A DNA stretch of 64,000 nt from an uncultured delta proteobacterium (GCA_963696385.1 CAVOKF010000005.1:608001-672000); one strand, 5' to 3'. Positions 15,305 through 37,805 are shown, counted from the first letter of the stretch. A program made the numbers and translations. Notes: generated by a model from the letters alone, not told the origin.

Positions 15305-15455
15305 GACTCCCTCTGTGTCTCCGCGGCCTCACTGGGGCCATTCGGTTCAAAACGTTTAGAGAGCGAATACCCGCGCCACATTGGTGGTGCCGTGAGCTTC
15401 TTCTCGTAGCTCGACGTGCAATCACCGATCCAATGGGCGAATACGAAGAGTCACG

Positions 15456-15734
15456 ATGAGTAGGGCCGTTCTGTCGGCCTCGCTTGCAGCTTGCAATCAG
15501 CAGCCCGGACAGACTGAGACGAAAAAGGAAATCCAAGCCAACGAACAAGCCAGCAGCGCCGGAATGGAAGCGGAGCAGCGTTTCCGGAACGCACGGGCCG
15601 CGGCGGATGACCATATTGCCTCGTCCCGCATGGACTTCGTGAAAGCGGGACCTCAAAAGCTCGAACGGATATTCGAGCGCATCTTTGCCGAACGCTGCCG
15701 CACGTTCGCCCTGCGTGTTACCCCGTCGTGGTGA
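15456..15734 (+). pseudogene. Possible truncated coiled-coil lipoprotein
   Basis: SLAAC lipobox followed by a short helical segment that degrades into non-protein-like sequence. Confidence 0.3.
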
Positions 15735-15737
15735 GGC

Positions 15738-16070
15738 TCAACGCGCGACGAGGCCCGTCGCACCGACAGGCAGGGCGCTTTCGACGGGAGGCGCGAAATC
15801 CGTCGCGCCGACGCGCGTGAGCGTTCCGGTAGGCTGAATTTGAAAAATTCCGATCGACGCTACCCCCGGGTTGAGGACGTACAGGAACTGTCCATCGGAG
15901 GAAATGGTTTCGTCATTCGGGCCATTGACGACGGTACCCGCCTCCGTCGTGCTGGTCTGTCCCGTCGTGGCGATGACGGCATTGGTCGCGGTGCCGATGT
16001 CGGTGAGATCTCCGGTGGTGGAGCTCACGGTGACCCCGCTGATGTCGGAGCCTTTCGCGTTGGCGACATC
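15738..16070 (-). pseudogene. C-terminal fragment of a lactonase-like beta-propeller protein
   Basis: VANAKGSDISG...ISSDGQFLYVLNPGVASIGIF...LPVGATGLVAR; only the last blades are present. Confidence 0.6.
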
Positions 16071-16304
16071 CCCGCCGTCCGACCACATCTGCCACAATCG
16101 TGCCATACCGCCGGAAATGGGGTCGCCGTTGCGAAGGACGATTCCCCCCCCAAGCGAGATGACCGCACACGCTTCTTGCTACGGCGGGGTCTTCTCACGG
16201 AGGCAGTCATGACAGGCGAACTGAACGGACAGAAAATTGTGCCCGAGTGAATCGAACTCATGCCGGACCGATGAGATCGGTCTCGCGCCGATCGGGAGGA
16301 CGCG

Positions 16305-17528
16305 TTGAAGATCGTTTCGGCGGGGCATGCGGCTGGAATGGCGCTTGGCCGGACGCGACGGGAAACGGCAGAGGGCGCCGTTCTCGCCAGATTCATCGGG
16401 ACCTGCTCGCCCGTGCCCGCGTTTTTCTCATTGGCCGTCGCGATCACTTCGGCGTGCTCGCCCGCATCCGCGATGCCCCCGGGATTGGGTGACGGGGGAC
16501 GCGCCTCGCGCGCCGCGGCAGGCCCTATGGCGCTTGCCCGTCCCATCGGGCGCTTCGACACGCGCGATCCCGCGGGACCACGTTTTGGCTGGCCTGCAAC
16601 CGCCATTGAGGCAGCCTTCACGGGGGTGGGAATCAACGTGCGCCTTCGCGACGAAGGGGCCAACGTTTTCGCGGTGGTCATCGACGGGGCCACTCCGGCT
16701 TTGCTGGCCACGAATCGGACGACGGAGCGTTACGTCTTGGCCCGGGGCCTCGGTCCGGGCCGCCACACCGTCTTGCTCACCAAGCGCACCGAATCGAACG
16801 TCGGAGTGGTGCAGTTTCTCGGCTTCGTCCCGCACGAAGGAGTCCTGCTCAAAACGCCGGAGCCCGCCAGGACGCGCCGGATCGAGTTCGTCGGCGACTC
16901 GGTCACGTGCGGATACGGTGATCTCGCAACGGATCCGAAGGAGCACTTCAGCCCGGCAACGGAAGACGAAACAAGCGCCTACGGGGCATTGACCGCTGCG
17001 GTATTCGGCGCGCAGCGCTCTGTCATCGCGTACTCGGGCATCGGTGTGTACCGAGACCACGACGGCTCGACGCGGGACCAAATGCCCGTACGGTTCAGGC
17101 GAATCTTGGCGGACGACCCGACCAGCGTGTGGGGCTTCCGCGGCCCCGCTCCGGACGCGGTCGTCGTCCATCTCGGCGCGAACGATTTTGCAAAAGGAGA
17201 TCCGGGTGCGGTGTTCGAGCAAGCCTACGGTGGCCTGTTAAGCATGCTGCGCACGGTTTACCCGGACGCTGCCATTCTCTGCGCCGTCAGCCCCATGCTG
17301 ACGGATGCCTACCCGCTGGGAGCGAAGAATCGAACGAAGGCGGCAGGATACATACGAGCCGCAGTGAACGAGCGCAGGCTCGCGGGCGATAGGCATGTTT
17401 TCTATTTTGAATTCGACGAGATCGTCAAGGCCGACGGGTTCGGGGCCGACTATCACCCGAGCCTTTCCAGCCACCGTCGCATGGCGGCGGAGCTCGCGGC
17501 CGTGCTCCGGTCGACCTTGGGATGGTAG
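16305..17528 (+). CDS. SGNH/GDSL hydrolase, carbohydrate esterase family 2-like
   Basis: HTVLLTKRTE, RIEFVGDSVTCGYG, AYSGIG, LGANDF, DYHPS; start uncertain. Confidence 0.88.
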   Translation: MKIVSAGHAAGMALGRTRRETAEGAVLARFIGTCSPVPAFFSLAVAITSACSPASAMPPGLGDGGRASRAAAGPMALARPIGRFDTRDPAGPRFGWPATAIEAAFTGVGINVRLRDEGANVFAVVIDGATPALLATNRTTERYVLARGLGPGRHTVLLTKRTESNVGVVQFLGFVPHEGVLLKTPEPARTRRIEFVGDSVTCGYGDLATDPKEHFSPATEDETSAYGALTAAVFGAQRSVIAYSGIGVYRDHDGSTRDQMPVRFRRILADDPTSVWGFRGPAPDAVVVHLGANDFAKGDPGAVFEQAYGGLLSMLRTVYPDAAILCAVSPMLTDAYPLGAKNRTKAAGYIRAAVNERRLAGDRHVFYFEFDEIVKADGFGADYHPSLSSHRRMAAELAAVLRSTLGW

Positions 17529-17631
17529 AGGCGCCTGCGAGCACGCGCGCCCTACCTGCCTCGAAGTTCGTGGCCCGCGAGGTAGCGCCAGATTGCCGCC
17601 AACGCCGTCGTGTCCGCGAACACCTCCCCAC

Positions 17632-18423
17632 ATGGGGGTATCATGTTGCCCAATCACACCGCGCTAAAGGTCGCAGAAACCTTCCGTGTCCTGCATGCCC
17701 TCTTCCCCGGTCGCATCGATCTGGGCCTCGGCCGTGCTCCGGGTACCGATCCGCGCACCGCAGCGGCCCTCCGCCGGTCACGAGAGGCGCTCGCCGTCGA
17801 CGACTTTCCCGAGCAATTCGATGAGCTCGCGCGCTACCTGGACGACGACGCTCCGCCCCGTTCCGGTCCGACGGGAACGATTCGCGCCATCCCGACCAAC
17901 GTCCCCTCGCCGGAGCTCTGGATGCTCGGGTCGAGCGAGGCCGGCGGCGCTCTTCTCGCCGCGCAACGCGGACTGGGCTTCGCCTTCGCCCACCACATCA
18001 ACCCGGAGGACTCGGTTCGCGTCCTGCGGGGGTACCGCGAGGCGTTCGTCCCTTCCGCGCGCTGGCCGAAGCCCTGGGCCATCCTCGCGCTGGCTGTCGT
18101 CTGTGCCGAGACCGACGAGGTTGCCGAACGACTCGCCTCGTCGAGCGAGCTCGCCATGGTGCGCTTCCGACAGGGCGTTCGCGACCCCCCCCTTACCGAG
18201 TGTCGAAGAGGCGATCGCGCATCGCTACGGCCCGGCGGAGCAAGCGTTGCGACGCGGAGGCAGCGCGCATTTACTCGTTGGCGGCCCCGCGCGGGTGCGC
18301 GCACGGATCGCTGAGCTCGTGGAAGCGTCGCATGCGAACGAGGTGATGGCGCTCACCCACATGCACAAACACGCCGACAGGAGGCGATCGTACGAGCTGC
18401 TGGTGGACGCACTGCGATCTTGA
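17632..18423 (+). pseudogene. LLM-class flavin-dependent oxidoreductase (YhbW-like), N-terminally truncated and frameshifted
   Basis: [37 protein letters not shown] in one frame; PLPSVEEA...RRRSYELL in the +1 frame after a C8 run at 18185-18192. Confidence 0.85.
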
Positions 18424-25107: not shown

Positions 25108-25306
25108 ACACAGCCGAGCTTCGGGCAAGGTCGATCGCCGGCGTCCCGGGGGCCGATCCCGGTCCCGACCGTCGGCTCGGCCTTGCGCCGAGGCGAAACG
25201 CGATCGTCCAGGCGGCGCGCCACGGAGTGTGCCTCCTCCCTTCGCCGCGACCAGGTGTCCCGGGCGACAACCGTACGGCCGTGGCGTGTAGGGCGTCGAG
25301 CGGCGC

Positions 25307-25600
25307 TCAGCGGCCTTTGCCGAGAAGGCTCAGCGCGGCGACTTGAATCGACAGAGCGCCACACATGACGGCCTCCCTCGTTTCAGAGGAAGGAGGGTGT
25401 GCGGCCCAACGGCTGATTTCGTCTCTCAGCCGTTCGGCCTGGGCCACCAGGTCACGAATCTCCGTTGCCGGCTCGATGCCGCCTAGGCAGTGGAGCGCGA
25501 GGTCGACGGCGTACCGGGCGCGGTCGACGCCGGGGTCGCGCGAGGGAAGCGAGAACAGGCGCGAGGTGTGTGGCGAGGTTCTATCGGCTTGTGTAGGCAT
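25307..25600 (-). CDS. Small hypothetical helical protein
   Basis: ORF with amphipathic helical character; no family recognised. Confidence 0.3.
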   Translation of the reverse strand: MPTQADRTSPHTSRLFSLPSRDPGVDRARYAVDLALHCLGGIEPATEIRDLVAQAERLRDEISRWAAHPPSSETREAVMCGALSIQVAALSLLGKGR

Positions 25601-25820
25601 GCAGGGGATCAACCATCGGGACGGCCATTCGATGGCGCACGTCGTCCGCGCATAGCATCGACTCGTCGGCAAAGTCGTCGAACTCGCGGCGGCGAAGGAT
25701 CAGCCAGGACACGGCGCGACCGCCCATGGCGTCGAAGCGAATGCCGCCGCATCCCGCGCTGCCGGCGGTGGCGAGAGCGCTTCGTCACCGGCGGTCGCGA
25801 TCCGACCCACGAACGACGGG

Positions 25821-26297
25821 TCAATCGGCGCCTTGCAGGGGGATCGGCAGGGTCTCGATCGGAAGCACGCCGTCTTTGAGGTCGTCGTGCGCCGTGTGGG
25901 TCGGGACCTTTACGGGCGCATGTTCGGCCACCAATCCGCGGTTTCGGCTCTCCCGATCCCGGGCCTCCGACACCGGGGCTTGATGGTGCATCCAGAGATG
26001 GATGAAGGCCGTCAGAATGAAGAAGCTCGCAATGAGCATGCCGCTGTCTGCGAAAGCCACCCGCGGGTGCAGAAGCGACGGTCGGCTGACACCCCAAAGC
26101 TCGGCAGCAACCGTCGAGAGGGCACTGGCGGCCGAGGTACCCCAGAGCAACCCCCTGGATCGTTGCAGGGCGCAAAGTGCGATGGGAAGCGTGAACAAGC
26201 CGCATCCGCAAGGCTCCGCCGCAGTGCAAAGCGCGACTGCCGCCACGAGCGCGGTGCCGGCGACGACGGTGGCTACCACCAGGGGTCTCCGATTCAT
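25821..26297 (-). CDS. Hypothetical membrane protein resembling an isolated membrane sensor module
   Basis: Several hydrophobic segments; sigma-54-like CGGGTCGGAAATTGCA at 26311-26326. Confidence 0.4.
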   Translation of the reverse strand: MNRRPLVVATVVAGTALVAAVALCTAAEPCGCGLFTLPIALCALQRSRGLLWGTSAASALSTVAAELWGVSRPSLLHPRVAFADSGMLIASFFILTAFIHLWMHHQAPVSEARDRESRNRGLVAEHAPVKVPTHTAHDDLKDGVLPIETLPIPLQGAD

Positions 26298-27224
26298 TCG
26301 TTGCCGCTGCTGCAATTTCCGACCCGAGCCACCGAGGCCGCAGCCGAGAGGGCAGGATGCCGGTCGTACGAGCCCACCTTGTCTGCGCCGAGCCCACGCG
26401 GGACTCGGTGAGCGTTGCACGCCGAAGGACCGCCTTGCGGCCTTCTGCCCGGCTGCGCAGCAGTGAGTGGCCACGTGGCTCGCGCGGTGCTGACGCCGGT
26501 CAGGCAAGGATTACGGTCCGCTCTGCGAGTCGCTCGGCGTGGATCTCGTTGGCAAGCCGCGTCGGTTCTGCCGTTCATCCTCGAACAGCGCATGTGGGCG
26601 GCCGCGTCAAGAAAGCCGGTGCCGGCGACTGGCGGTCGCTCTGGAAAGCGACCCCGGGGAAGGTGGGCGCGCTGATCCGGGGTGTCGGCCCTTCCACGCC
26701 CTTCACCGGCGTGCCTCGCTAATGGCGAAAGCAAGGGCCCACGAGGACCGGACGCGCGTCGCAGCCGACCCACGCGAACGCCCGGTGCACAGCGAGATGG
26801 GCCGGACGCCCGAATCCGGCCACCGCCGTCGCCGGGAAAACGGGGTCTCCGATTCGTCACGATCCCCTCTGATCGGGCGAAGAAGCGCGCCAAAGGAGGA
26901 TCCTCGGGCGGCGAAAACGAAAATACTGTGCATGACCTCGGGCACGCCAGCATCTGCAAGGGCAGGGGCACGTGGGAAGAGGCCCATTTGTCGGAGGGCA
27001 CGATGGACGGCAGGGCAAGACTCGTGGAATGTTGCGATCCGGCCCGACGAGGCCTGGCGGAGCTCAGCGTCGCAGGTGGGCCCGACACGACGCGGATCGA
27101 TGCGTTAGGCGACGCGGCGCGAAGCCGCCCAACCGAGACGGCACCGCGAACCGTGCGGCTCGTGGCGGGCGGTTGTGCTACCAACGGCACCTACGGCTGC
27201 CGGTCCGTCATTCTCGCCCAATCC

Positions 27225-27683
27225 ATGGCCATAGGAGTCGGTGGGACTTGGCATTCGTGCAGCACCGAATTTTTCGCGTGCCAGGCGGCGCCCCAGCCAA
27301 TCTTCGCCTTGACGCTCTCGCAACTGCATTTGTCTTTTTTGGTCTCGCGCGACGAAGAGTACGTAGCGCTTTCTGCGAGGGCGGGCAGCCGCACGTTCAA
27401 TCTGGGCGACGGGGTCTACAACTATTTGCTGCTTACGCTGGCTCGTCGGCGGCTCGCCGACGCCGCGGAGCGGCTGGCCGATAGCGCGTGCGGGTGGGTC
27501 TCGCAGGAAGAACTTGACCACGACCCGACGATGGCGCCGACACAAATTAATATCGGAGTATTCCGAATGCGGGCGCGACTGCGGGGCTTCGGCGTCGTCG
27601 ATGCCAACGCCATCGTCGAGCGCCGCCGAACGGCACGGCAACTTCGGATCGGCACGCCGCATCTGTCGGTGCTGCACGTCTAG
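27225..27683 (+). CDS. C-terminal (wHTH-like) domain of myxobacterial FHA-domain proteins, FHA apparently absent; possibly a truncated gene
   Basis: LHLSFLVSRDEEYVAL, YNYLLLTLARRRLAD, GWVSQEEL, INIGVFRMRARL, IVERRRTARQLRIG; upstream in-frame sequence does not look like FHA. Confidence 0.55.
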   Translation: MAIGVGGTWHSCSTEFFACQAAPQPIFALTLSQLHLSFLVSRDEEYVALSARAGSRTFNLGDGVYNYLLLTLARRRLADAAERLADSACGWVSQEELDHDPTMAPTQINIGVFRMRARLRGFGVVDANAIVERRRTARQLRIGTPHLSVLHV

Positions 27684-27840
27684 GTCTCGCCATGTCTGCA
27701 GTGGCCGATCGTCACGCAGATGTTGCACGCGCGACTGGAGGGCTAGACCGTCGCGGGTGCCCGGGTGGGGCAGGTGACCGTGCTCTCGCCTCGCGCCAGA
27801 CCACCCGCGGTGGGAGACATGTGGTAACGTCGCACACGCG

Positions 27841-28701
27841 ATGTCTGTTTCGGCGGGCCGGGATGAGCTCCTCGAACGCATGGCGGTGGCGGTAGAAGCC
27901 CGGTTTTCCGGATGGCGCATCGAACGCAACGAATTTATCCGACGTCTCGAGTCGATCCTCGACGCCGAGCAGGCCACGGGCGGCCCTGATCTAGACTTGG
28001 CAGCGAGAGTTGAAAAACTCAGCATCGACGACGTCTATCTGGCGTACGGCTGCCTGATAGGCATCCCCGGCGCCATCGCATCGTTCGCGCGAACCTATCT
28101 ACCGAGGATCGACGAATACCTCCGGTGCCTGCCGAGGGCCAGGCTGCACCGCGACGAGGTCCAGCGACGTCTCGAGGACCTCCTTCTTCTGCCCCAGAAC
28201 GGCGCGCCTCCACGGATTGGTCAGTACCGTGGCCGCGCGCCACTGGACCACTTCGTGGCCGCCGTCGCGCGCAACGCGGCGCTCACACTGCTCAGAAGCG
28301 AGCGGCGCGGGCAACATGTGGTTGACATCGACCGGCTTGCGCTGCCCGCGAACGGGACGGACGAGCCTGGGCGGTACGCAAGCGGCCTTTACGAAGCGGT
28401 CGTACGAGACGCAGTGCGGTCCTCGCTCGCAACACTCGATCGCCGCCAACGAACCACCGTGCGGTTGCACCTGTCCGGGGGGGTCACGTTCACGCAAATC
28501 GCGCGCATGCTCCGGGTGCACCAGTCGACAGTGAGCCGATCCTTCGACGCCGCAATGCTCAAACTCCACGCGGACGTACTGCGCCAGCTGCGGACTCACG
28601 GCCTGTGCGATGCCGAAATAGAATCCGTGATACGCGACGTCCGCAGTCATATCGATCTGAGCATTTCACGCGTGCTGCGTGACACCGACGTAGACGACTG
28701 A
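27841..28701 (+). CDS. RNA polymerase sigma-70/ECF-like factor, Myxococcales type
   Basis: DDVYLAYGCLIG...AIASF, DEVQRRLEDLLL, PRIGQYRGRAPL, region 4 LDRRQRTTVRLHLSGGVTFTQIARMLRVHQSTVSR, LSISRVL tail. Confidence 0.85.
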   Translation: MSVSAGRDELLERMAVAVEARFSGWRIERNEFIRRLESILDAEQATGGPDLDLAARVEKLSIDDVYLAYGCLIGIPGAIASFARTYLPRIDEYLRCLPRARLHRDEVQRRLEDLLLLPQNGAPPRIGQYRGRAPLDHFVAAVARNAALTLLRSERRGQHVVDIDRLALPANGTDEPGRYASGLYEAVVRDAVRSSLATLDRRQRTTVRLHLSGGVTFTQIARMLRVHQSTVSRSFDAAMLKLHADVLRQLRTHGLCDAEIESVIRDVRSHIDLSISRVLRDTDVDD

Positions 28702-28810
28702 GTCCCCTTTGCGTCTCATTCGACGAGAAGGACACCGCCCGACGCATGCCCCGCGCGGCGCTGCGTCTCGGGGTAAGCCACGAAGGACACACCGTCGAAA
28801 GGATCGCGGC

Positions 28811-30907
28811 ATGCCGCTTCAATCATCGGTACGCAGGCGCCAAAAAGTCATCGTCGTCGGTGGTGGAGTTGCGGGGCTCACGGCGGCGCACGAGCTCATC
28901 GAGCGCGACTTCGAGGTGGTCCTCTATGAGCGGCGAATGGAATTCGGCGGAAAGGCCGCGAGCAAGCGTGTGGCCGTGACCGATCCGCACGGAGGGGTGA
29001 TTGATGGCCTTCCTGCGGAGCACGGCTTTCGATTCTTTCCCGGCTGGTACCGGCACCTCCCGGACACGATGGGCCGAATCCCGATCGGCGGACGTCGAGA
29101 TCGCGAAAAAGAGCGCAGCGTTCTCGACCACCTGGTCCCGACCGATCGCAACCTGCTCGTTCGGTACGGGCGCGAGCCGATGCCCGTCGTTCTCTACTCG
29201 CCGAAGAGCGTGGCGCAGGCGCGTGCACTCGTCGCGTTCGCTCGCCAATTAGTGACGATGGGGCTCCCCGCGCGCGATGTCTCCGCATTCTTGACGCGCC
29301 TGGCCGAATTCGTCCGCACCCCCGAGGAGGATCGGGAGCGGTTGTACGACCGGACATCGTGGTGGGACTTTATCGAAGCCGACCAACGATCGGAGGCCTT
29401 CCGCGCACTTATCGTAGCGACGACGCGCACGCTTCTTGCGGCGAAGGCCGAGGAGGCCAGCGCCTACACGATCGCGCTATTGGCGGTCCGGACGCTGTTC
29501 GACTCGCCGTTGAGGTCCGATTGCGTCCTCGATGGGCCGACTTCCGAGGTCTGGATCAAGCCATGGCTGCTTTACCTCCAGGGGCGAGGGGTGCAGCTCA
29601 AGTCTGGCTACGAGCTTGACTCGATCCATTTCGACGGCAAGAGCCCGCGGATCGGGTCTCTGTCCTTCGTGCGCAGCGAGAGCGCGGTCTGCCGCCGACA
29701 ACTCCGGGAGGCCGGCCGGAGCCATGAACGAACGAGCGCGGCGCGGTTGCGGTTGATGCGCGAATATTCCGATCGGAATGGAACGAATGCTTCCGTTCGG
29801 ACCTCCGAGGCATCCCTGGAGTCCATCCATTCCATTGCGGTCGAAGAACTCAAGTCGTTTGCCCCCGACGACGAGCGCCATACAGCCGACGCGGATTTTT
29901 ATGTGTTCGCGCTGCCAGCCGAGCAAATGGCGTATTACGTGAACCGCTCGGCGACGATGACGTCGTACGCGCCGTCGCTCCGCCGCATCGTCCAGCTCAG
30001 TACCACGCTCGACTGGATGGCCGGGGTCCAGTTCTATTTCAAGTTCCCTTTGGACATCGCGCCCGGGCATATCGTGTGCGGGGACTCCGAATGGGCGCTC
30101 ACGGCCATCGAGCAGACGCAGTTCTGGCGAGACGTTCCGCTGCCGCCGGGCGTTCAGGCGATTCTCTCCGTCGATATCAGCGCCTGGGGCCAAAAGGGAC
30201 GCTTTGTTCGAAAAGAGGCATTCAATTGCACGCGCCATGAGATCGCGACGGAGGTGTGGGAACAGATCAAAGCGTCGTTCAATCGAAGCAACGAGCCCGA
30301 AGTCCTTCGTGATGAGATGCTCATCAAGGGAACTGTCGCCGGCAGCTTCAGCCTCGACGACGACATCGTCGATCGGTACGATCGCAAAAAGCACGCGGCC
30401 TACGCCCGTGGGGTGGACCAGGCGATCCAGCACGCGGCCGCGGTCGCCGAAGGGGCCCAAGCGCTTCTCGAGAGCGCGGCGGAGCATCCGGAGGCGCCGT
30501 TCGTCTTCGGAGACCGACTCGAATTCAACGCCGAGCCCCTCCTCGTGAACCGGCCCGGCTTCTTGCAGTTGAGGCCCGCCGCGCGCACGCCCATCGAGAA
30601 CATGTTCTTGGCGGCGGACTACGTAAGGACGGCCACCAACCTCGCATGCATGGAGGGCGCGAACGAAGCCGCGCGCCATGCCACGAACGCGATCCTCGAT
30701 ACCTCGGGCTCTAGGTATCCGAGGTGCAAGACGTGGTCGCTGCAAGATGGCGAAGCACTCGCCGGCATGGCTTCCGTCTTGAGCTTGGTGAACCAGTGGC
30801 CCGGCGCCGGGGCTTCGCTGGAGACCGCGAGCGGGGCGCTGGACACGCTCGGCGGCCTCGCTGGACGGGCAACGGACCACCTCAAGCAATTTTGGAAAAG
30901 ACCATGA
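28811..30907 (+). CDS. FAD-dependent oxidoreductase, HpnE/carotenoid-desaturase-like superfamily
   Basis: VIVVGGGVAGLTAAHEL, FGGKA, PAEHGFRFFPGWYRHL, LDGPTSEVWI, RTPIENMFLAADYVRT, ACMEGANEAAR. Confidence 0.85.
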   Translation: MPLQSSVRRRQKVIVVGGGVAGLTAAHELIERDFEVVLYERRMEFGGKAASKRVAVTDPHGGVIDGLPAEHGFRFFPGWYRHLPDTMGRIPIGGRRDREKERSVLDHLVPTDRNLLVRYGREPMPVVLYSPKSVAQARALVAFARQLVTMGLPARDVSAFLTRLAEFVRTPEEDRERLYDRTSWWDFIEADQRSEAFRALIVATTRTLLAAKAEEASAYTIALLAVRTLFDSPLRSDCVLDGPTSEVWIKPWLLYLQGRGVQLKSGYELDSIHFDGKSPRIGSLSFVRSESAVCRRQLREAGRSHERTSAARLRLMREYSDRNGTNASVRTSEASLESIHSIAVEELKSFAPDDERHTADADFYVFALPAEQMAYYVNRSATMTSYAPSLRRIVQLSTTLDWMAGVQFYFKFPLDIAPGHIVCGDSEWALTAIEQTQFWRDVPLPPGVQAILSVDISAWGQKGRFVRKEAFNCTRHEIATEVWEQIKASFNRSNEPEVLRDEMLIKGTVAGSFSLDDDIVDRYDRKKHAAYARGVDQAIQHAAAVAEGAQALLESAAEHPEAPFVFGDRLEFNAEPLLVNRPGFLQLRPAARTPIENMFLAADYVRTATNLACMEGANEAARHATNAILDTSGSRYPRCKTWSLQDGEALAGMASVLSLVNQWPGAGASLETASGALDTLGGLAGRATDHLKQFWKRP

Positions 30908-31578
30908 ACGAACCAGCCAAGGATCCAGCACACATGCCACCCATGTCAGGACCAGCGCTCACCGAGCACCTGCGGAGGATGCCGGTGAAGCTCGCATTTT
31001 GCTTGGCGATCACCTGCGATGGCGCGGACATCGTCTCGATGGCTCCCAGCCCAGTCCCTGGGGGTACGCGCCTGCGCGTGGCGTATCAAGGGGGCGAGGT
31101 CACCGTGGGCGAGGACAGCGCCGTGCCCAACCTTCGCGGCCAGGTGCTCAGCGGCAGCGATTGGATTCTGGTCGCCGACGACGGTGTTGCGACATTCGAT
31201 GCGCGGCTTACTTTGGGCAAGAGCCGCAACGAGGTGCTGCCCTCGAGCGATACTCCCGCCGAACACGCGTACAAACTGGGGGTGAACGGACCCCTCGACG
31301 ACTACCTCATCAACGCGCGGATCACCGGAGTGGCGGACTTCGGGACGAACGCGGCAAGCTTCGATGGCAAGCATCCCGTTGCGCTCCCCGTTGCATTCGA
31401 GGGGGCGGGGCCCTCCGTAACGTGGGCGAAGCCGCTCTTCCGGCAGCGATCCGAGAACTACGACCACTATGCGTTCCTACTTCGCCATCAGTGCATCGCC
31501 ATCGGCCATGTGCACGTGGCGGATCGCAAGGTCACCCGGGTCGAGTTGAAAGTCTTTGCCCTCGGCGTTTCACCCTGA
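30904..31578 (+). CDS. DUF3237-like beta-barrel protein 1 (most divergent)
   Basis: PGGTRLRVAYQGGEV, LRGQVLSGSDWILVADDGVATFDARLTL, YAFLLRHQCIAIG, VELKVF; ATGA overlap with the oxidoreductase. Confidence 0.65.
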   Translation: MNEPAKDPAHMPPMSGPALTEHLRRMPVKLAFCLAITCDGADIVSMAPSPVPGGTRLRVAYQGGEVTVGEDSAVPNLRGQVLSGSDWILVADDGVATFDARLTLGKSRNEVLPSSDTPAEHAYKLGVNGPLDDYLINARITGVADFGTNAASFDGKHPVALPVAFEGAGPSVTWAKPLFRQRSENYDHYAFLLRHQCIAIGHVHVADRKVTRVELKVFALGVSP

Positions 31579-31585
31579 GTGTCGC

Positions 31586-32134
31586 ATGGAACATCGAAGG
31601 TATTTCGTCGACCGGGCTCTTCTCTACCTCTTCTCGACCGACATCGAGTTTGGACTCAACTTCGAGCAACTCGGACTCGTCTCCATGGGCGCGCGCTTCA
31701 ATCTGTTCTGCGTGTCGAACAGCACGCGGGTATACAACGTTCTTCGAGAGCGGGAGGTCGGCGCGTTGGCCTACGCGGCGGTGTCGGGCAAGCTCATCTG
31801 GGGTGAGGATGCATCATTGCTGGGCTCCGATGACGTTGCGATCGCCAACGTACGCGCCACGATCCAAACGGACGATGGAGCCTTGATCGATGCGACGTAC
31901 AGGGGCGTCATGCCAACCGCACTGGGGGTATTTCGAGCGATTGCCGGGGGCGTGGACAAGATCGGCAAGCCGGAGACGCCCGCGGAGTTCCGCTTGGTCG
32001 TGACTCCCACGTATCAAACGGGGGACCAGAGATACGCGTGGCTCAATGAACTTCAGTGCGTTGGGTTCGGCCGGGTTCAGGAAGTCGACGGCACGTTTCG
32101 GCGCGTGACGTACGATATCTACGCGATGTCGTGA
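31586..32134 (+). CDS. DUF3237-like beta-barrel protein 2
   Basis: VRATIQTDDGALIDATYRG, PTYQTGDQRYAWLN, CVGFG, VTYDIY. Confidence 0.85.
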   Translation: MEHRRYFVDRALLYLFSTDIEFGLNFEQLGLVSMGARFNLFCVSNSTRVYNVLREREVGALAYAAVSGKLIWGEDASLLGSDDVAIANVRATIQTDDGALIDATYRGVMPTALGVFRAIAGGVDKIGKPETPAEFRLVVTPTYQTGDQRYAWLNELQCVGFGRVQEVDGTFRRVTYDIYAMS

Positions 32135-32141
32135 GGGACCT

Positions 32142-32726
32142 ATGGATCTCGCAAACGTTCGCAAACGATTTCTCGATCGGAACATGAAATACGCGTGCTC
32201 GTTCGACCCGCGGCTATGGTTTACTACGGACAGCATGACGCGCACCCCGACCGGCGATCGGGTCATCGTCGTCCCCCGCTCCGCGCCGCGCGGCCACACC
32301 AGGGTGGGCGAATTCTTTCACGTTCACGACGAGACCAGCGTCGCCGGCGTGGACGACAGACGGCACAACTGCCCCATTGGAACCATCGAGCATATCGACG
32401 AGTCCGTCGTCTTTTTTCACGACGATCCCCACGTCGGCACGATCGAGGGGCGATTGCTGCTGAAGACGAATGACAAGGCCGCCATCGAGGTCTCGTATGC
32501 CGGCACCCTGCGCTTCCGCGTGTCTGCCGCTGCCAGTCTGAAGTTGGATCGCCCGCTGGAGGCCAGTGCGTGGATCATTCCGGTATTCTCGACGACCGAC
32601 ACGCGGTATCAATGGCTTTGCTCCCACGCGTGCGTGGCCTTCGGCACCTGGGTCGCGTCGAAGGACGCCGAGGCGGCGCGCGGACATAATGTCGATACGA
32701 ACCTGGACGTTTACTCGAATGGCTGA
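32142..32726 (+). CDS. DUF3237-like beta-barrel protein 3
   Basis: RTPTGDRV, GRLLLKTNDKAAIEVSYAG, PVFSTTDTRYQWL, CVAFG, LDVY. Confidence 0.7.
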   Translation: MDLANVRKRFLDRNMKYACSFDPRLWFTTDSMTRTPTGDRVIVVPRSAPRGHTRVGEFFHVHDETSVAGVDDRRHNCPIGTIEHIDESVVFFHDDPHVGTIEGRLLLKTNDKAAIEVSYAGTLRFRVSAAASLKLDRPLEASAWIIPVFSTTDTRYQWLCSHACVAFGTWVASKDAEAARGHNVDTNLDVYSNG

Positions 32727-35700
32727 TGGGTGGCGGACGGTGCGTCGGCACCGACTCCGACTCCGAGACGCGCGAGGGTGCCCCTTGCGCGCGGTGCGGC
32801 GTCGTATTCGTGCGACGCAGCATGGTGCTGGACGAGAGCGAGTGTCAGGAGCGCCTCTTCGTGGGGGATCTCGAGCGAAATAGCCGCACGGCGGCCGCGC
32901 TGCCAGATCGCGATGGAACGCTTCTTCGCGCCCGACAGCCAGCATCTCGTGCCCTCGTGCAGGCAATACCGCGGCAGCGCGACCGGAAACGTGCGGGCCG
33001 CGGCGCGGAGGGTCTCACAGGAGCGGCGAGCCTTGGCCGCGTAAATCCGGTCGCGCGGTTCCGAGGCGACCCACGCCGCCAAGCGCACCTCGGCAAGACG
33101 GGCATACGGGTCGAGGCACAAGAGGTGGACCGTTTTTGCCGCTTCGATCCTCGCAGACGCGTCGTCGGCTGCGGCGAGCGCCCGGTCGCCGAATCCTTGC
33201 GAATGGAGCACGTACGCGCGCAGAGCGAACGCCCTTATTTGCTCGGGCAGGCCGAGCTGAGGGACGAGACGCTCGGCGTGGCGCAGGTTCTCCTCTGCAG
33301 CGTCGAGATCGCCGCGCGCCACGTGAACCTCCGCACGGCGGAGGAAGCCCCAGCTCGTCGTCTGGACGTCATTGCGTCGCACGGCCGAGTCAAACATCCG
33401 GTTGCACCATTCGAGGCACCGATCGAAGTCTCGACCCCACTCGACGGCGCAACGCAGGCCCGCCCCTTCCTCCCACCGCCGCCCAAAGCCGAGTTCCTCG
33501 GCGATCTGCATGACCCGATCGCCGGCTGCCGACGCGCGCTGCCAGTCGCCCAGGCCGCTCAAGTAGTGGCCATGAAGCACCTGGTAGTACGACTCGACTT
33601 CTGGATCGTAGGCCTCGCGAAGCGCACCCTCGGCTAGATCGAAGTACGCCCTCGCGAGCCTTGGAATCGGGACAATTCCCGCCGTGGCGGCCGCGTTGGT
33701 GAAGCCGACCGCTCGCATCGGCGACGGCGCACCCCGCTCGGCGAGATCCAACGTCGCGAGGTTCGCGTAGAGCAGTGGTGCGTATTCTCCGCGATAATAG
33801 TAAATCTGCGTCAAACGATCGTAGGCACGAGCGGCCTCCAGCAGAGCGGGACTCTTTCGCGGGTCCGACTCGACCCATCGACGAGCGACCGTACGGTGGA
33901 TCAGTTGCCTCGCCAGTTTCACCCCCACGCCGAGGGCCATTCGAGCCGGGCTTTCAGGCATCGGCCGAGCAAGGAGCCGGACCGCTTCCAGCAGATTATG
34001 CTTGCTGGCGGAGAGGTCGCCCAACCCCTGGAGGGCATCTCCGATGCGCCTTGCCCAATAGGCGCGCCGCTCGGCCGGCACCGGCACGTACCCCGCAGCG
34101 CTGGCGGAAACCGCCTCACGGAAGAACCGGACCGCATCGGCGTTCGCCGACGTGCGCAGGGCGTTCTCCGCAGCTCGCTCGAAATAGTCAATCGCACGAT
34201 CCCAGGCCTCGCCGTTGCGAAAATGATAGGCCATCTCGGCATGGTGGCCCGCGGCGTTCGGTCCCCCGGCGTGCTCTCTCTGCAGCGCCTCCCCCGCCGC
34301 GAGGTGCAGCGCCCTTCGGCGTCGTCGATCCATACGATCGTAAGCAAGCTCTCGAATCTTGTCGTGCACGAAGCGGAAGTCTTGTTCGCGGGCGCGCTCG
34401 ACGAGCTGTCGATCGAGCATCTCGCTCAACCACGGCGAAAGGTGGGATTCGGGCTCGCCGCTGACTTCGGCAAGCATCGATGACCTGAACTCGCGGCCTA
34501 GGACCGACGCCACTTCGGCGGCACGGCGCGCTCCCGCGCTCAGCAGCTCCAGCCGTCGGACGAGCAATTCGCGGAGCGACCGCGGTAGATCCAGGACGTC
34601 GGCGACCGATCCGACGCCGGTCAGACGATCGGACCATGTCCATCCCTCGGCCGTGTGCGCCAACAGTCCCTCGAAGGCAGCCGCCCGCAAGTACTCGGCG
34701 ACGAAAAATGGATTGCCCTGCGCCCGATCCGTCAGGGCGCGCATCACGTCGAGGGGCGCGGGCCGTGCCAGCATATCGCCCACCATGACCGTCAGCGCCG
34801 CCTCGTCGAGGCGCTCGAGCACGTGCGAGTGCACGTCCGCATGGTCGAGGAGCTTCGAGATCTCGCCCGACGCCTCTTCGAGTCGGTAAAGGCCGATGAC
34901 GAGGATCCCGGCGCTCGCAAGAACTTCACCCGCAATGGAATCGAGAACGGCGAGCGACAGGTCATCGGCCCACTGCAGATCGTCGATGACCAACAGAAGC
35001 GGGCCTCTCCGACCGAAGCGCACGATGAGCTCGCGCATCGACTCCACGGCGCGCTCCCGTTCTGCGGGCGGCGGCAGAGCACCCCAAGGGGACAGTTGCC
35101 CCTCGAACAAGTGACCCAGGGTCGGTTCGTATTGGGACAAGACGTGGAGCGCCGGCGGCGACCCGAAGAGGTCCATCGCTACGTCCCAGGTCCGGCAGAC
35201 GTCGGACGCGCGCTGCAGGAGGCCGCGGAACGGTTCGAGCGCGGTACCCGCGACCTGCGGCCCCGACTCCGAGGTGGGCGCAATCGCCACGCATTCTCCG
35301 GTCACCACCTCGAACCGGCGTCGCGCGAGCAAACGCGCCAATTCGGAGGCGAGGAAGGTTTTTCCGATGCCGCTCTCGCCCCCGATGAGAACGAAGTGCC
35401 CTTGCCCGCGCAAAGCTCCCCGTGCAAGTTCCTCGATTTCCCCGACGATGTCGTCGCGCCCTACGAGCCGCGGTCGGAACAAATACTGCGTCCGCGATGG
35501 GGAAGGCGGACGCGGAACCGTGGATCCCATCGATCCGAGAAGCTGCGCGACGATCTCCGCACTGCCGAGTCGCTCCCCTGGCCTCTTGGCCAACAGGCCA
35601 TCGAGCAACTCGTTGACCGCGTCGGGCAGGCCGGCAACCAGATCCGATGCGGGCGTCGGAACGTCGTAAAGGTGCGCGTGCAAGAGGTCGTGCGAGGTCT

Positions 35701-36670
35701 TTGCCGTGAACGGAGGACGACCCGTAAGGCTCTCGTAGAGCATGCAGCCGAAGGCATAAATATCGGCCCGAGCGTCGGGGATTTGGCCACGAATCAACTC
35801 CGGCGCCAGGTACGGCAAGGTCCCGCGCAGCCCGCCCACTTCGAGGGTCTCGCGACCGATCGCTCCGCCTGCGCGCGACATGAGGCCGAAATCGACGAGG
35901 ACGGGTTGGTCGTCGTGGCGAACGAAAACGTTCGAAGGCTTGAGATCGCAATGAACGATTCCTGCGCGGTGCACGAACGATAGGGGTTCGCACATTCGAC
36001 TGAACAGCGACAGGACCTCGTCGAGTCTCCCGGCCGCCGCGGGGACAAGCGCCTGCAGGACAGGACTGGACCCCGGCGGGCTCGCTCGTCTCGAGGCCGG
36101 GTCTCCCCAGCAAGAGCGATTGAACGTCGCGAGCGTCTGGCCTTCGAGCAACTCCATCGCGTACCACGGGTCACCGTCGACGATGCCTTCTTCATAGATT
36201 CGGACGATGCCCGAGTGCCGCGCACGTTGAAGAAACGCGATCTCGTGCCGCATCGCGGCGAGCGCCGCCGGAATGCGATGGGTGATGGTCTTGACTGCGG
36301 CCGGCCGCGAGGTGCCCTCGTCGACCGCCGAGTAGACCACACCCATGGCGCCGCGGCCGATCTCGGCGACGACGCGATAGGGTCCGAAACGGTCACGGAC
36401 TGCGCCTTGCAGCAGATCCGCCGTTGCCATTCGCTCGGACGCACGCGCAATCGCCGCGACCAAGTGAACCCAGATCGAATCCCTCTGGACGTCGGGGGCG
36501 CGCTCGGCGGTGAACGACCCCGCCGTCGCGGCGACGACGTCCAAACAACGCCCGCAGTGGTCCAGGTGCTCTTCGAATCGGGAGACGTCGGCGATCGGCA
36601 AATCGCCTCGAACGAACTCCACGACCCAGGTCTTCTCTGGACACTCCATCTGGTTCTCCGGACGATTCAT
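32711..36670 (-). CDS. Ser/Thr protein kinase with N-terminal zf-HC2 (ZAS-like) motif, AAA_16/STAND NTPase and TPR-like C-terminus
   Basis: CPE...FEEHLDHCGRC; IGRGAMGVVY, AAVK, HCDLKPSN, DFG, GTLPYLAPE; Walker A GESGIGKT, Walker B LVIDDLQWAD, GNPFF, FVHDKIRE; helical repeats; start at 36670 or 36649. Confidence 0.92.
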   Translation of the reverse strand: MNRPENQMECPEKTWVVEFVRGDLPIADVSRFEEHLDHCGRCLDVVAATAGSFTAERAPDVQRDSIWVHLVAAIARASERMATADLLQGAVRDRFGPYRVVAEIGRGAMGVVYSAVDEGTSRPAAVKTITHRIPAALAAMRHEIAFLQRARHSGIVRIYEEGIVDGDPWYAMELLEGQTLATFNRSCWGDPASRRASPPGSSPVLQALVPAAAGRLDEVLSLFSRMCEPLSFVHRAGIVHCDLKPSNVFVRHDDQPVLVDFGLMSRAGGAIGRETLEVGGLRGTLPYLAPELIRGQIPDARADIYAFGCMLYESLTGRPPFTAKTSHDLLHAHLYDVPTPASDLVAGLPDAVNELLDGLLAKRPGERLGSAEIVAQLLGSMGSTVPRPPSPSRTQYLFRPRLVGRDDIVGEIEELARGALRGQGHFVLIGGESGIGKTFLASELARLLARRRFEVVTGECVAIAPTSESGPQVAGTALEPFRGLLQRASDVCRTWDVAMDLFGSPPALHVLSQYEPTLGHLFEGQLSPWGALPPPAERERAVESMRELIVRFGRRGPLLLVIDDLQWADDLSLAVLDSIAGEVLASAGILVIGLYRLEEASGEISKLLDHADVHSHVLERLDEAALTVMVGDMLARPAPLDVMRALTDRAQGNPFFVAEYLRAAAFEGLLAHTAEGWTWSDRLTGVGSVADVLDLPRSLRELLVRRLELLSAGARRAAEVASVLGREFRSSMLAEVSGEPESHLSPWLSEMLDRQLVERAREQDFRFVHDKIRELAYDRMDRRRRRALHLAAGEALQREHAGGPNAAGHHAEMAYHFRNGEAWDRAIDYFERAAENALRTSANADAVRFFREAVSASAAGYVPVPAERRAYWARRIGDALQGLGDLSASKHNLLEAVRLLARPMPESPARMALGVGVKLARQLIHRTVARRWVESDPRKSPALLEAARAYDRLTQIYYYRGEYAPLLYANLATLDLAERGAPSPMRAVGFTNAAATAGIVPIPRLARAYFDLAEGALREAYDPEVESYYQVLHGHYLSGLGDWQRASAAGDRVMQIAEELGFGRRWEEGAGLRCAVEWGRDFDRCLEWCNRMFDSAVRRNDVQTTSWGFLRRAEVHVARGDLDAAEENLRHAERLVPQLGLPEQIRAFALRAYVLHSQGFGDRALAAADDASARIEAAKTVHLLCLDPYARLAEVRLAAWVASEPRDRIYAAKARRSCETLRAAARTFPVALPRYCLHEGTRCWLSGAKKRSIAIWQRGRRAAISLEIPHEEALLTLALVQHHAASHEYDAAPRARGTLARLGVGVGADAPSATHQPFE

Positions 36671-37034
36671 CTGCGGAACGCAGGCCGGAGTGACGGGATC
36701 GCCTACCCGTGAATCATCCGCTATCAAAGAGAGCGAGCGAGGTCAACCGTTCTTCAGCGGACGCCGTCGATGCTCTTGCGGATGCGATCCATGGGATTTC
36801 CTCCACCGCGAGAGCCGTGTTATGTTCGAGGATCCCTCCAGTCGCATCGTTCCCGAGACCGGCGGTCGTAGCCGGGCGTACCCCCCGGGTAGCGAAAGAT
36901 CGCAAACGACCCGCCCGTGGAGCCTCTGAGGAGGCGGGACGAGCTGCGATGCGGGCCGGTGCGATACCGGCGTCGACGGAGCGGCGCCGCCGGGTTAGCG
37001 TAACGCGCTTTTCCCATCGAAGGAGAAATGCCTC

Positions 37035-37805
37035 ATGGCGAATGTGAGCACTGGACGGTTCTGCTGGCACGAGTTGGTCACCACCGATCTCACTGCGGTG
37101 ACGAAGTTCTACGGAGATCTGCTCGGCTGGACGTTTCGTGACAACCCGAGCCCGGAGGGCGGGACGTACCGAATGTTCTCGGTCGGCGAGACGATGGTCG
37201 GCGGCGCCATGGTGGCGCCAGCGGGTGTGCCATCGGGTTGGCTCGTCTACGTCGCAGTCGATGACGCTGACTGGGCGGCGAGGAAGGTCGCAGATCTCGG
37301 TGGCAAGATCACGGTGCCGGCGACGACGGTCCCGGACATGCTGCGCTTTGCGTGCGGGTCGGACCCGCAGGGGGCCGCGTTCGGGATCCTCCAGCCGCTC
37401 GGTGCTGGCGCGCAACAGCACCCCTACGAAGGGCCCGCGCGCCCAGGCACGTTCTGCTGGGACGAGTTGCACACGACGGACATGGCGGCGGCGAAAAAAT
37501 TCTACGGCAGCTTGTTCGGATGGGCCGGCAAGGGCGAAGCGGACGGTGGCGAGGCGTACTGGCACTGGAAGCACGCGGACAAGGAGATCGGCGGAATGAC
37601 GTCGCATAGGGGGGGGCCGGGCGTGGCTCCGCACTGGCTCGCATACGTCGCGGTGTCAGATGTCGACGCGGTCGCGAAGAAGGTCGTGGCGTTCGGCGGC
37701 AAGGTGCTGATGCCTGCAATGGAGATCCCGAACGTGGGGCGGTTCTCGGTCGTCCAAGATCCGACAGGCGCCGTGTTCTCGCCCTTCCGCTCAGCGCGCG
37801 TCTGA
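37035..37805 (+). CDS. VOC/glyoxalase family protein with two domains (CFP32-like)
   Basis: GRFCWHELVTTD and GTFCWDELHTTD; DPQGA and DPTGA; AGGAG RBS. Confidence 0.92.
   Translation: MANVSTGRFCWHELVTTDLTAVTKFYGDLLGWTFRDNPSPEGGTYRMFSVGETMVGGAMVAPAGVPSGWLVYVAVDDADWAARKVADLGGKITVPATTVPDMLRFACGSDPQGAAFGILQPLGAGAQQHPYEGPARPGTFCWDELHTTDMAAAKKFYGSLFGWAGKGEADGGEAYWHWKHADKEIGGMTSHRGGPGVAPHWLAYVAVSDVDAVAKKVVAFGGKVLMPAMEIPNVGRFSVVQDPTGAVFSPFRSARV

Follow-up and report, generated by a model that had tools for sequence, protein, structure and literature searches.

What holds a sigma factor, a flavoenzyme, three small proteins of the DUF3237 family, and a very large protein kinase together in one tight group of genes? 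This group is found in the DNA of an uncultured delta proteobacterium (GCA_963696385.1, CAVOKF010000005.1:608001-672000), in a stretch of 64,000 nucleotides that is called the window here. The original prediction described the group as a self-contained sense-and-respond module of six genes, in which the kinase controls the sigma factor and the sigma factor drives enzymes that modify a lipid-like molecule. The comparison with other genomes gives a conserved core that consists of the flavin adenine dinucleotide (FAD) oxidoreductase, three DUF3237 barrels, and a protein with a STAND-type NTPase; the regulators are exchanged around this core. We favor tentatively, at a little less than an even chance, the reading that the group is self-contained and ligand-gated: it would sense a hydrophobic molecule, most likely an isoprenoid- or lipid-like one, and respond to it, where the ligand would also be the substrate and its modification would be inducible.

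The open reading frames (ORFs) of the window were listed and then scanned with the family models of Pfam and NCBIfam. All six genes named in the original prediction exist where it had placed them. Five of them are on the plus strand: the genes for the sigma factor (27841-28701, 286 aa) and the FAD oxidoreductase (28811-30907, 698 aa), and the three DUF3237 genes, denoted as D1 (30904-31578, 224 aa), D2 (31586-32134, 182 aa), and D3 (32142-32726, 194 aa). The sixth, on the minus strand (32711-36670), encodes a kinase-STAND-TPR protein of 1319 aa (TPR, tetratricopeptide repeat). The module had been thought to begin at 27225 with the sigma factor. This position is instead the start of a seventh gene on the plus strand, orfU (27225-27683, 152 aa), whose product is an OmpR/PhoB-type winged-helix protein by fold match. 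The tight coupling of the genes is real, with an ATGA overlap and two gaps of 7 bp, but the overlap (30904-30907) joins the FAD gene to D1 and not the sigma factor gene to the FAD gene. The latter two are separated by a spacer of 109 bp. The gaps lie between D1 and D2 (GTGTCGC) and between D2 and D3 (GGGACCT). The kinase gene is convergent to this row and its 3' end overlaps D3 by 16 bp (32711-32726), just as had been described.

Is this arrangement more than chance? One genome per species (GTDB) was scanned for the FAD protein, which gives 44 public loci with a FAD homolog (denoted by L-numbers). These loci were searched by tblastn with all seven window proteins; their ORFs were called by a heuristic on the GC content of third codon positions (GC3), and Pfam was run on selected ORFs. 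In 13 of the 44 loci DUF3237 genes come directly after a long FAD gene. The arrangement is therefore more than chance, the gene set being found again in these 13 other loci. All 13 are metagenome-assembled genomes (MAGs) of Myxococcota type; eleven are labelled Myxococcota, Myxococcales, Polyangiaceae, or 'delta proteobacterium' (the last is the label of the L002 and L008 records), and L005 is labelled only 'uncultured proteobacterium'. An orthologous kinase-AAA_16-TPR gene adjoins the last barrel gene in 11 of the 13 loci (in two frames in L002, and cut by the contig end in L020). An overlap or near-overlap of the FAD gene and D1 is found again in L002, L003, L009, and L013.

The loci are of two main types. 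In type A (L001, L002, L003, L004, and L011) the order is sigma factor, FAD, D1, D2, D3, and then the convergent kinase gene, as in the window; the FAD protein of L001 is 93% identical to that of the window. L010 has its kinase gene convergent in the same way, and its sigma factor gene is relocated beside the kinase gene. The original prediction was to be abandoned if the enzyme genes never accompanied such a sigma factor/kinase pair in other genomes, and they do so in these six further loci (L001-L004, L010, and L011). In type B (L006, L007, L009, L013, and L020) the FAD gene, a long D1-like DUF3237 gene, D2, D3, and the kinase gene are tightly packed on one strand (the L020 contig starts within the FAD gene). 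A Guanylate_cyc-AAA_16-TPR protein exists at the kinase position in L008. L005 has the FAD gene and two barrels and lacks a STAND gene within the 10-kb flank. The sigma factor, which had been taken as a fixed part of the system, is replaced by other regulators in other loci. An FHA protein with an orfU-like C-terminal domain lies directly upstream of the FAD gene in L007 and L009 (by Pfam) and in L013 (by tblastn, 47% identity over 311 aa). In L006 an FHA-sigma54 activator follows the kinase gene and an ordinary ECF (extracytoplasmic function) sigma factor is found upstream. The flanking genes differ among loci, including those of the window, and therefore the module is self-contained. No mobile-element genes are found beside the module in the loci examined, and no exporter or transporter is conserved among the 13 loci.

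Two further ORFs in these loci may be mentioned. In L007 (8265-9926) a single open frame encodes ECF sigma factor regions 2 and 4, FHA, and an orfU-type winged helix, which may be a real fusion or an artefact of MAG assembly. In L008 the cyclase-AAA_16-TPR gene (14734-17952) has an upstream segment of a cyclic nucleotide monophosphate (cNMP)-binding kinase (4891-5247) that is 74% identical to that of L024.

In a sample of 401 Myxococcota genomes (denoted by G-numbers), a close ortholog of the C-terminal sensor region of the kinase protein (54% identity) is found in G000 and G225 only, the next best having 32-33% identity, and the long FAD gene (62% identity) is found only in the same two. Relatives of the sensor region at 25-35% identity are found in 151 of the 401 genomes; the kinase architecture is therefore generic. 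The genome of the window itself (6.94 Mb in 8 contigs, estimated to be 96.4% complete) has a single copy of the FAD gene and one locus of barrels. The sigma factor is the sole strong match there to the family model TIGR03001 (the next scores 36 bits), and none of the 94 kinase matches is a full-length paralog of the window kinase. The nearest public relative of the window is a Polyangiaceae MAG. When D2 was used as a single-protein query on genome contigs, L001 and seven distant DUF3237 loci were found, from which no reverse test of the module is gained; with the sensor region as the query, the L001 contig alone was recovered. A metagenome scan with the FAD alignment (GxGxxG and one other pattern) was set aside, as nearly all of its 68 loci matched the N-terminal dinucleotide-binding segment only.

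How would the sigma factor and the kinase be connected? The sigma factor belongs to the ECF-type sigma-70 family (TIGR02937, residues 116-242, 45.4 bits vs. a cut-off of 42.9). It comes close to TIGR03001 (Sig-70_gmx1, Myxococcales family 1), aligning to model positions 13-244 of 244, and falls below the cut-off for this family (143.1 vs. 154.6 bits). With Pfam, Sigma70_r4 stays below the cut-off (22.8 vs. 24.1 bits), and no region 2 is detected. The kinase protein has a zinc finger near its N-terminus (zf-HC2, PF13490; residues 18-42, 36545-36619 on the minus strand; 24.1 vs. 22.2 bits). The HxxxCxxC motif that had been noticed there exists as HLDHCGRC, and the finger and the motif together place this segment among class I (zinc-binding) anti-sigma domains. 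It is followed on the same strand by a Hanks-type Ser/Thr kinase domain (Pkinase, residues 98-375, 35546-36379; 133.9 bits) with intact GRGAMG, AAVK, HCDLK, DFG, and APE motifs. Next comes a STAND NTPase domain of the AAA_16/MalT type (residues 401-584, 34919-35470; 80.9 bits vs. a cut-off of 32.6) with intact Walker A (GESGIGKT) and Walker B (LLVIDD) motifs. The C-terminal part (residues 585-1319, 32714-34918) is helical and TPR-like and is presumed to be the sensor region. Its TPR character is weakly detected (TPR_MalT, 27.4 bits, under the cut-off of 45), and it aligns with the orthologs of both locus types. Kinase orthologs are 37-91% identical over approximately 1200-1300 aa in nine loci. 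Judged by the orthologs, the protein may start at 36649 (MECPEKTW) instead of 36670.

The zinc finger and the sigma factor go together. In the loci with the sigma factor, HxxxCxxC is found in all seven kinases, and in those without it in none of five. In type B kinases the homology to the window kinase begins at about residue 85-95. In L010 the sigma factor gene adjoins the kinase gene divergently and lies away from the enzyme genes. A partnership between the kinase N-terminus and the sigma factor would fit these data, because the sigma factor covaries with the zinc finger and adjoins the kinase gene in L010; these two observations are the best evidence for it here.

What does the flavoenzyme do? 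The FAD protein matches Amino_oxidase (49.4 bits) and NAD_binding_8 (48 bits). Its N- and C-terminal FAD-binding segments match the models of HpnE and phytoene desaturase (PDS), and the scores are far below the equivalog cut-offs: 80.9 vs. 283 for HpnE, 39.7 vs. 569 for Phytoene_desat, and 43.5 vs. 622 for zeta-carotene desaturase. The AlphaFold2 (AF2) model has a mean confidence (pLDDT) of 80.6. Its top Foldseek match is PDS of rice (5mog; E = 1e-19, TM score 0.81 by target, 13% identity), followed by oleate hydratases and then by nicotine (NicA2) and monoamine (MAO) oxidases. By this model the protein has an amine-oxidase/phytoene-desaturase-like fold, of the COG3349 or 'HpnE-like' type, the likeness being one of fold only. 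It is about 200 residues longer than PDS/HpnE-type proteins and has a variable helical insert and a C-terminal tail, and the helical tail (about residues 640-698) is conserved although its pLDDT is below 50. Active-site-like residues are invariant across 40 homologs. The family is large, with at least 1965 proteins at E ≤ 1e-10 among 8000 candidates scored, and its public labels are generic or automatic (e.g., 'hydroxysqualene dehydroxylase family' or 'NAD-binding and Fe-S'). A PADLOC candidate named 'C3a186 C-3',4' desaturase' matches the FAD N-terminus weakly (29.7 bits), and another one numbered near it, 'C3a189 kinase', matches residues 100-495 of the kinase protein (134.8 bits).

Distant FAD homologs (30-36% identity) are informative through their neighbors. 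An AAA_16 STAND gene is found within the flank of the FAD gene in 22 of the 44 loci, 20 of them detected with the window kinase and two (L036 and L037) with the L008 protein; 11 are confirmed by Pfam. By their labels, these loci belong to Myxococcota, Microscilla, Rhodothermales, Paenibacillus, an Actinomycetota MAG, Lysobacterales, and a Pseudomonadota MAG. The chance expectation for AAA_16 in a 20-kb neighborhood is approximately 8% (27 matches in the 6.94 Mb of the genome of the window), a crude figure since the loci are not independent and several contigs are short. The domains attached to the STAND core vary: kinase alone, cyclase, kinase-GAF-HisKA/HATPase, kinase-GAF-SpoIIE, or kinase-GAF-cyclase. 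In L017, L024, and L036 the gene order is cNMP-binding kinase, zinc-ribbon-cyclase-AAA_16-TPR, a gene of no assigned family, encapsulin-like gene, DUF3237, FAD, and polyprenyl synthase, and L024 has an orfU homolog as well. Other neighbors of related FAD genes are a Pyr4-like membrane terpene cyclase in Microscilla (L012), a 35%-identical homolog of this cyclase in L018 (by tblastn only), FadL/TodX in L040, a class-3 lipase in L032, a cyclopropane-fatty-acid-synthase-type enzyme (CMAS) in L014, and an MpaB/Lcp-like oxygenase in L038. The modelled FAD fold and these neighbors favor a hydrophobic, probably isoprenoid-type substrate, with a lignan as the alternative, and so the lipid-like substrate that had been proposed at the outset is strengthened.

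Some observations on these distant loci stand by themselves. The barrels of L017, L024, and L036 (within about 1100-13000) have N-terminal extensions of 68-145 aa, which might be cargo-loading regions. In three of the sampled Myxococcota genomes (G167:C29:51057-51677, G250:C27:203548-204327, and G376:C117:2029-4970) the FAD match lies inside an open frame of 1150-1300 aa, and in G376 it is about 600 bp from a match to the STAND sensor on the same strand. These frames may be fusions or further adjacent pairs.

All three barrels belong to the DUF3237/UPF0311 family (PF11578), with 32.4 (D1), 66.0 (D2), and 38.6 bits (D3) against a cut-off of 24. D2 is the best conserved, with 22 invariant columns in an alignment of 14 rows, and D3 has seven only. 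The D2 profile finds the UPF0311 structures 4pux (E = 8.5e-12), 3c5o, and 3g7g, all uncharacterised. A tree of 43 barrel sequences taken from these loci was built by maximum likelihood. D1 (12 rows) and D3 (13 rows) each come out in it as a single starred split (100/99) that spans the two locus types; the D2 rows are compatible with one origin, and the only barrel that each of L017, L024, and L036 has is placed as sister to D1. As the D1 and D3 splits span both locus types, the triplication predates the spread of the module, and the three barrels are, by their sequences, anciently diverged DUF3237 paralogs. They are found together in module loci (L005 has two). Do they act as a complex? Prediction of a D2-D3 complex gives interface scores (ipSAE) of 0.62, 0.62, and 0.66, with the best control at 0.00. 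The mark that these scores pass is reached by 116 of 157 solved complexes and by 2 of 215 mismatched pairs. The runs have 61% or more of their contacts in common, and the partner pLDDT is at least 84. The predicted interface is a reciprocal swap of N-terminal segments, and the segment motif is common to D2 and D3. The prediction supports D2-D3 pairing, as heterodimer or homodimer, two forms that it does not separate. In L011 (3884-5092) the D1 frame starts with a PilZ (c-di-GMP-binding) domain, which may reflect a fusion or two genes that share a frame.

The seventh gene, orfU, has no Pfam or NCBIfam match. Its conserved domain covers about residues 31-152 and its AF2 model has a pLDDT of 89.6. 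Foldseek finds nothing for this model at E ≤ 0.001. In a wide search with VIA-align, however, ranks 1-19 are all OmpR/PhoB-type DNA-binding domains (Z 8.6-6.1, root-mean-square deviation 2.2-3.1, 80-94 residues aligned). BaeR is the best (Z 8.6, deviation 2.8, 94 aligned), followed by GlnR (Z 8.2) and DrrD (7.8); EmbR (Z 5.3) and AfsR (Z 5.2) are found further down. The superposition on solved DNA-binding domains thus assigns the OmpR/PhoB winged-helix effector fold, with a sheet at the N-terminus, three helices, and a hairpin at the C-terminus, and Pfam Trans_reg_C matches neither orfU nor 40 sampled relatives. With the FHA protein encoded upstream of the FAD gene in L009, orfU shares 42% identity in the C-terminal domain of that protein. 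Its family counts 1482 representatives at E ≤ 1e-3 (full-library phmmer), with the match always C-terminal, and 27 of the 40 sampled relatives have an N-terminal FHA domain, two of them being SEFIR/TIR-kinase-FHA proteins. By its modelled fold, orfU is a stand-alone winged-helix DNA-binding protein of a family that is normally coupled to phosphothreonine recognition. Note that this domain represents a large family that lacks a Pfam model; usually it is the C-terminal half of an FHA protein about 305 aa long, and the two SEFIR/TIR-kinase-FHA proteins (824 and 928 aa) have it too. That orfU might be what is left of an FHA gene was considered and dropped: Pfam on the longer frame 26682-27683 finds no FHA remnant, and tblastn with the FHA proteins of L009 and L007 matches the C-terminal domain alone.

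How might these parts work together? In the ligand-gated module that we prefer, the kinase-STAND-TPR protein would be the sensor, and a ligand bound to its C-terminal repeats would switch on the NTPase and the kinase, by analogy to MalT- and PknK-type STAND proteins. The fused N-terminal zinc-finger anti-sigma domain would hold the neighboring ECF-like sigma factor until the signal arrives, with orfU possibly as a second output. The freed sigma factor would transcribe the FAD-D1-D2-D3 operon. The PDS-like flavoenzyme would then oxidise, desaturate, or isomerise the molecule, and D1-D3 might act on the product as a hetero-oligomer by cofactor-free acid-base chemistry (e.g., cyclisation, addition to a double bond, or decarboxylation). 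If the ligand is taken as the substrate, this would therefore be an inducible modification or detoxification system with negative feedback. Of all this, the data themselves show which genes make up the set and that it is conserved, that the core stays fixed as its regulators are swapped, what folds the proteins have, and that the sigma factor covaries with the zinc finger.

Several points weigh against this interpretation. The genes of the sigma factor and the kinase are convergent and not co-transcribed, unlike those of classic sigma/anti-sigma pairs. The sigma factor is absent from the five loci with a finger-less kinase and is therefore not essential to the function of the enzymes. The FAD protein is below the cut-off of every curated family, in addition to its low identity to PDS. 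The bacterial DUF3237 enzymes characterised so far all have lignin-derived aromatics as substrates, not lipids. The D2-D3 score may reflect the usual dimer geometry of DUF3237 proteins, as solved UPF0311 entries hold several chains. Where FAD-STAND pairs are found in distant loci, a cyclase, a histidine kinase, or a PP2C phosphatase serves as the output; none of these obviously controls the adjacent gene, and they fit an enzyme that feeds the sensor at least as well. A scan of 26900-37300 gives one promoter-like site where 1.2 are expected and five terminator-like sites where 6.2 are expected. These counts are those of shuffled sequence, and neither a promoter nor a sigma-binding motif or terminator pattern stands out. 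All comparison loci are MAGs and the gene calls in them are heuristic. Contigs from two RNA libraries (X19 and X20; ≥95%, mostly ≥99% identity) cover parts of orfU, FAD, D1, D2, and D3 and cross the D1/D2 and D2/D3 junctions, which is a weak hint of expression in situ, since such contigs may contain DNA and show neither the strand nor the ends of transcripts. None is listed over the sigma factor body (27968-28701) or most of the kinase gene, and the uncovered parts carry no conclusion.

The same evidence can be read in other ways. The FAD protein and the DUF3237 complex could turn a common isoprenoid or lipid into a signal, the STAND protein could bind this product, and the system would be autoinducing (quorum- or state-sensing) with a lineage-variable output, namely the zinc finger and sigma factor, FHA regulators, or a cyclase. 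The FAD-STAND pair is kept across several phyla while its output changes (kinase, cyclase, HisKA/HATPase, or SpoIIE), as pairs of synthase and receptor would look. The polyprenyl synthase next to the FAD-DUF3237 pair in L017, L024, and L036 gives a biosynthetic context, and in L006, L007, L009, and L013 the kinase gene stands in the same packed co-directional row as the enzyme genes. We nevertheless consider a signal synthase rather unlikely. Pfam scans of the ORFs called across the window find no polyprenyl synthase, terpene cyclase, polyketide synthase, or nonribosomal peptide synthetase domain, so that the absence of a nearby scaffold synthase claimed in the original prediction stands. An exporter or transporter is likewise not conserved in the 13 loci, and operons induced by their substrate and located beside their regulator are far commoner. 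A wider proposal can be drawn from the cross-phylum pairs: a COG3349-like flavoenzyme and an AAA_16-TPR STAND protein would be a widespread two-part signalling unit. The enzyme (with the DUF3237 complex in Myxococcota) would make or process an isoprenoid-derived ligand that the STAND protein reads, and the outputs would be plugged in per lineage: zinc-finger anti-sigma domain and sigma factor, FHA-winged-helix protein, cNMP cyclase acting on a cNMP-dependent kinase and possibly encapsulins, histidine kinase, or PP2C phosphatase. This proposal we hold to be fairly unlikely as well; if true, it would be a new class of small-molecule signalling.

In another reading the enzyme genes are input and not output: the flavoprotein and barrels might be a sensory subunit that reports redox or lipid-peroxidation state and docks on the TPR part of the STAND protein. 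The adjacency in 22 of 44 loci with variable outputs agrees with this, TPR regions commonly bind proteins, and the conserved low-confidence FAD tail (about 640-698) could be a docking element; but the invariant active-site-like residues fit catalysis as well as sensing, and we consider it very unlikely that the enzymes are a sensory subunit. The published chemistry of DUF3237 proteins would suit a further reading, the catabolism of lignans (plant phenolic dimers) on the sphingomonad pattern, where a flavin oxidase would prepare the substrate, several stereo-complementary DUF3237 decarboxylases would open or decarboxylate a furan ring, and the STAND kinase would sense an aromatic. In the published passages, bacterial DUF3237 enzymes are characterised only as the stereospecific decarboxylases PhcF and PhcG and the related PinX, and several paralogs would suit racemic substrates. 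The DNA runs with this stretch come from peat, wetland, and soil (14 studies), and the flanks of the window encode an arylsulfotransferase, a glyoxalase/dioxygenase-superfamily protein, an arabinofuranosidase, and a CE2 esterase. These flank genes are, however, not conserved in other loci, and the module is not accompanied by genes for ring cleavage or for later steps of aromatic breakdown. D2 and D3 are predicted as a pair and not as separate stereospecific enzymes, and the FAD fold and its relatives' neighbors point to isoprenoids or lipids. Of the characterised DUF3237 enzymes the comparison covers PhnH, which D2 matches at E = 0.61 only. Lignan catabolism is distinctly unlikely on balance. 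Could the module be an anti-phage or conflict system, where the STAND protein would detect the invader and the kinase would act as effector? Both STAND NTPases and Ser/Thr kinases do occur in defence systems. The PADLOC models PD-T4-6 and mad6 match the kinase protein, but they match its generic kinase domain alone and do not identify a defence system. PADLOC has no match for the barrels, the sigma factor, or orfU, and in the FAD protein only the dinucleotide-binding motif at the N-terminus is matched. Dedicated transcription factors and a metabolic gene content are unlike known defence architectures, and mobile-element genes are absent beside the module in the loci examined. A defence function is thus extremely improbable.

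The surroundings of the module in the window can be described briefly. Between the arylsulfotransferase gene and orfU, a region of approximately 2.1 kb (25108-27224) has no Pfam-recognised gene; read by eye, a minus-strand frame in it (25821-26507) resembles a small hydrophobic protein. On the minus strand at 6678-13567, two giant hybrid histidine kinases stand side by side (1003 and 1274 aa); they have GAF/PAS, HisKA/HATPase, and receiver domains and are unrelated to the module. The regions upstream of the sigma factor gene and the sigma-FAD spacers of six loci were compared by eye, and no shared sigma-type promoter could be called. A ribosome-binding-like element, CGAAAGG, is seen by eye before the FAD start in four of six type A loci. 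The octamer TGCGTCTC occurs twice in the sigma-FAD spacer (28702-28810), both copies are kept in L001, and an imperfect hairpin is possible around the second copy. The stretch is present in 20 sequencing runs from the 14 studies, mostly metagenomes of peat, wetland, and soil, two of the runs being the RNA libraries.

If the ligand-gated module exists as proposed, it would give a handle on three groups of proteins: on what the abundant myxobacterial kinase-STAND-TPR proteins sense, on bacterial DUF3237/UPF0311 barrels outside lignin catabolism, and on the function of the large uncharacterised 'HpnE-like/COG3349' flavoenzyme family. For the first of these, even PknK has no known ligand according to the review passages (PMC4601284). 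With its fixed enzyme core and exchangeable regulators, the module amounts to a natural experiment on which parts belong together, and six to seven genes are a compact set for heterologous expression. The FAD-STAND adjacency across phyla suggests a general principle of enzyme-coupled sensing.

How does this module compare with known systems? The open-access papers found on DUF3237, COG3349, UPF0311, and ECFSTK1 do not describe the gene set (subscription journals and supplements were outside this scope). The module, the constant DUF3237 trio, the FHA-winged-helix family that has no Pfam model, and the cross-phylum FAD-STAND adjacency are described in none of the open-access papers found. Among the enzymes, the FAD protein shares its overall fold with PDS 5mog, HpnE, and oleate hydratases and its FAD-binding segments with the HpnE and PDS models, and differs from PDS and HpnE by the low identity, the scores, and the additional length given above. 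Characterised DUF3237 enzymes are in the same PF11578 as D1-D3. According to the published passages, these small barrels need no cofactor and perform acid-base chemistry on what a preceding enzyme has made: PhcF, PhcG, and PinX decarboxylate lignin-derived dimers, and PhnH is an intramolecular hydroalkoxylase of phenalenone (herqueinone) biosynthesis. Here, by contrast, D2 is nearest to uncharacterised UPF0311 structures, and three diverged paralogs, for which pairing is predicted, always occur together. The partner here is a flavoenzyme of the amine-oxidase fold; PhcC and PhcD are GMC-type oxidases, and the substrate of PhnH is prenylated. The operons of Family 2 encapsulins resemble L017, L024, and L036, where the DUF3237-FAD pair exists between an encapsulin-like gene and a polyprenyl synthase together with cNMP-linked signalling genes; polyprenyl transferases are cargo of these encapsulins (PMC8346489). 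In contrast, scans of the called ORFs find no encapsulin or polyprenyl synthase in the window, and the passages of PMC8346489 do not mention FAD or DUF3237 proteins.

On the regulatory side, kinase-linked ECF groups are documented in several papers (ECF43, ECFSTK1-4, and EcfK-PknS; PMC7826278, PMC4937300, and PMC13147305). The claim that Myxococcales-type sigma factors commonly sit beside kinases with a zinc-binding anti-sigma (ZAS) motif has been compared with this literature on ECF-STK groups (STK, Ser/Thr kinase) only. As in ECF/ZAS pairs and ECF-STK groups, an ECF-type sigma factor here adjoins a protein with the HxxxCxxC anti-sigma motif. Unlike in those, the motif is fused to a kinase-STAND-TPR protein of 1319 aa, the two genes are convergent, enclose the enzyme genes, and are not co-transcribed, and the sigma factor is below the TIGR03001 cut-off. 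EmbR, which is listed in a table of PMC4601284 as regulated by kinases, and AfsR are similar to orfU in the OmpR/PhoB winged-helix fold (Z 5.3 and 5.2). The FHA fusion in related loci is as in EmbR of the EmbR-PknH system. In the orfU family, however, the order is FHA and then winged helix, no BTAD is detected, Trans_reg_C does not match, and the FHA domain is absent from orfU of the window. Another likeness is to PknK-VirS-mymA of M. tuberculosis. According to the passages of PMC4601284, PknK is a soluble Ser/Thr kinase with a C-terminal STAND domain that phosphorylates VirS, a transcription factor controlling the mymA monooxygenase operon, i.e., a flavoenzyme operon for the cell envelope. 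The regulator there is of the AraC type and is phosphorylated, and the sigma factor here is presumably held by the fused zinc finger, or is replaced elsewhere by an FHA-winged-helix protein. The enzyme families differ as well, there being no DUF3237 genes in the mymA operon. Every component of the module is a member of a known protein family, and its logic is precedented by PknK-VirS-mymA, kinase-linked ECF sigma factors, and EmbR.

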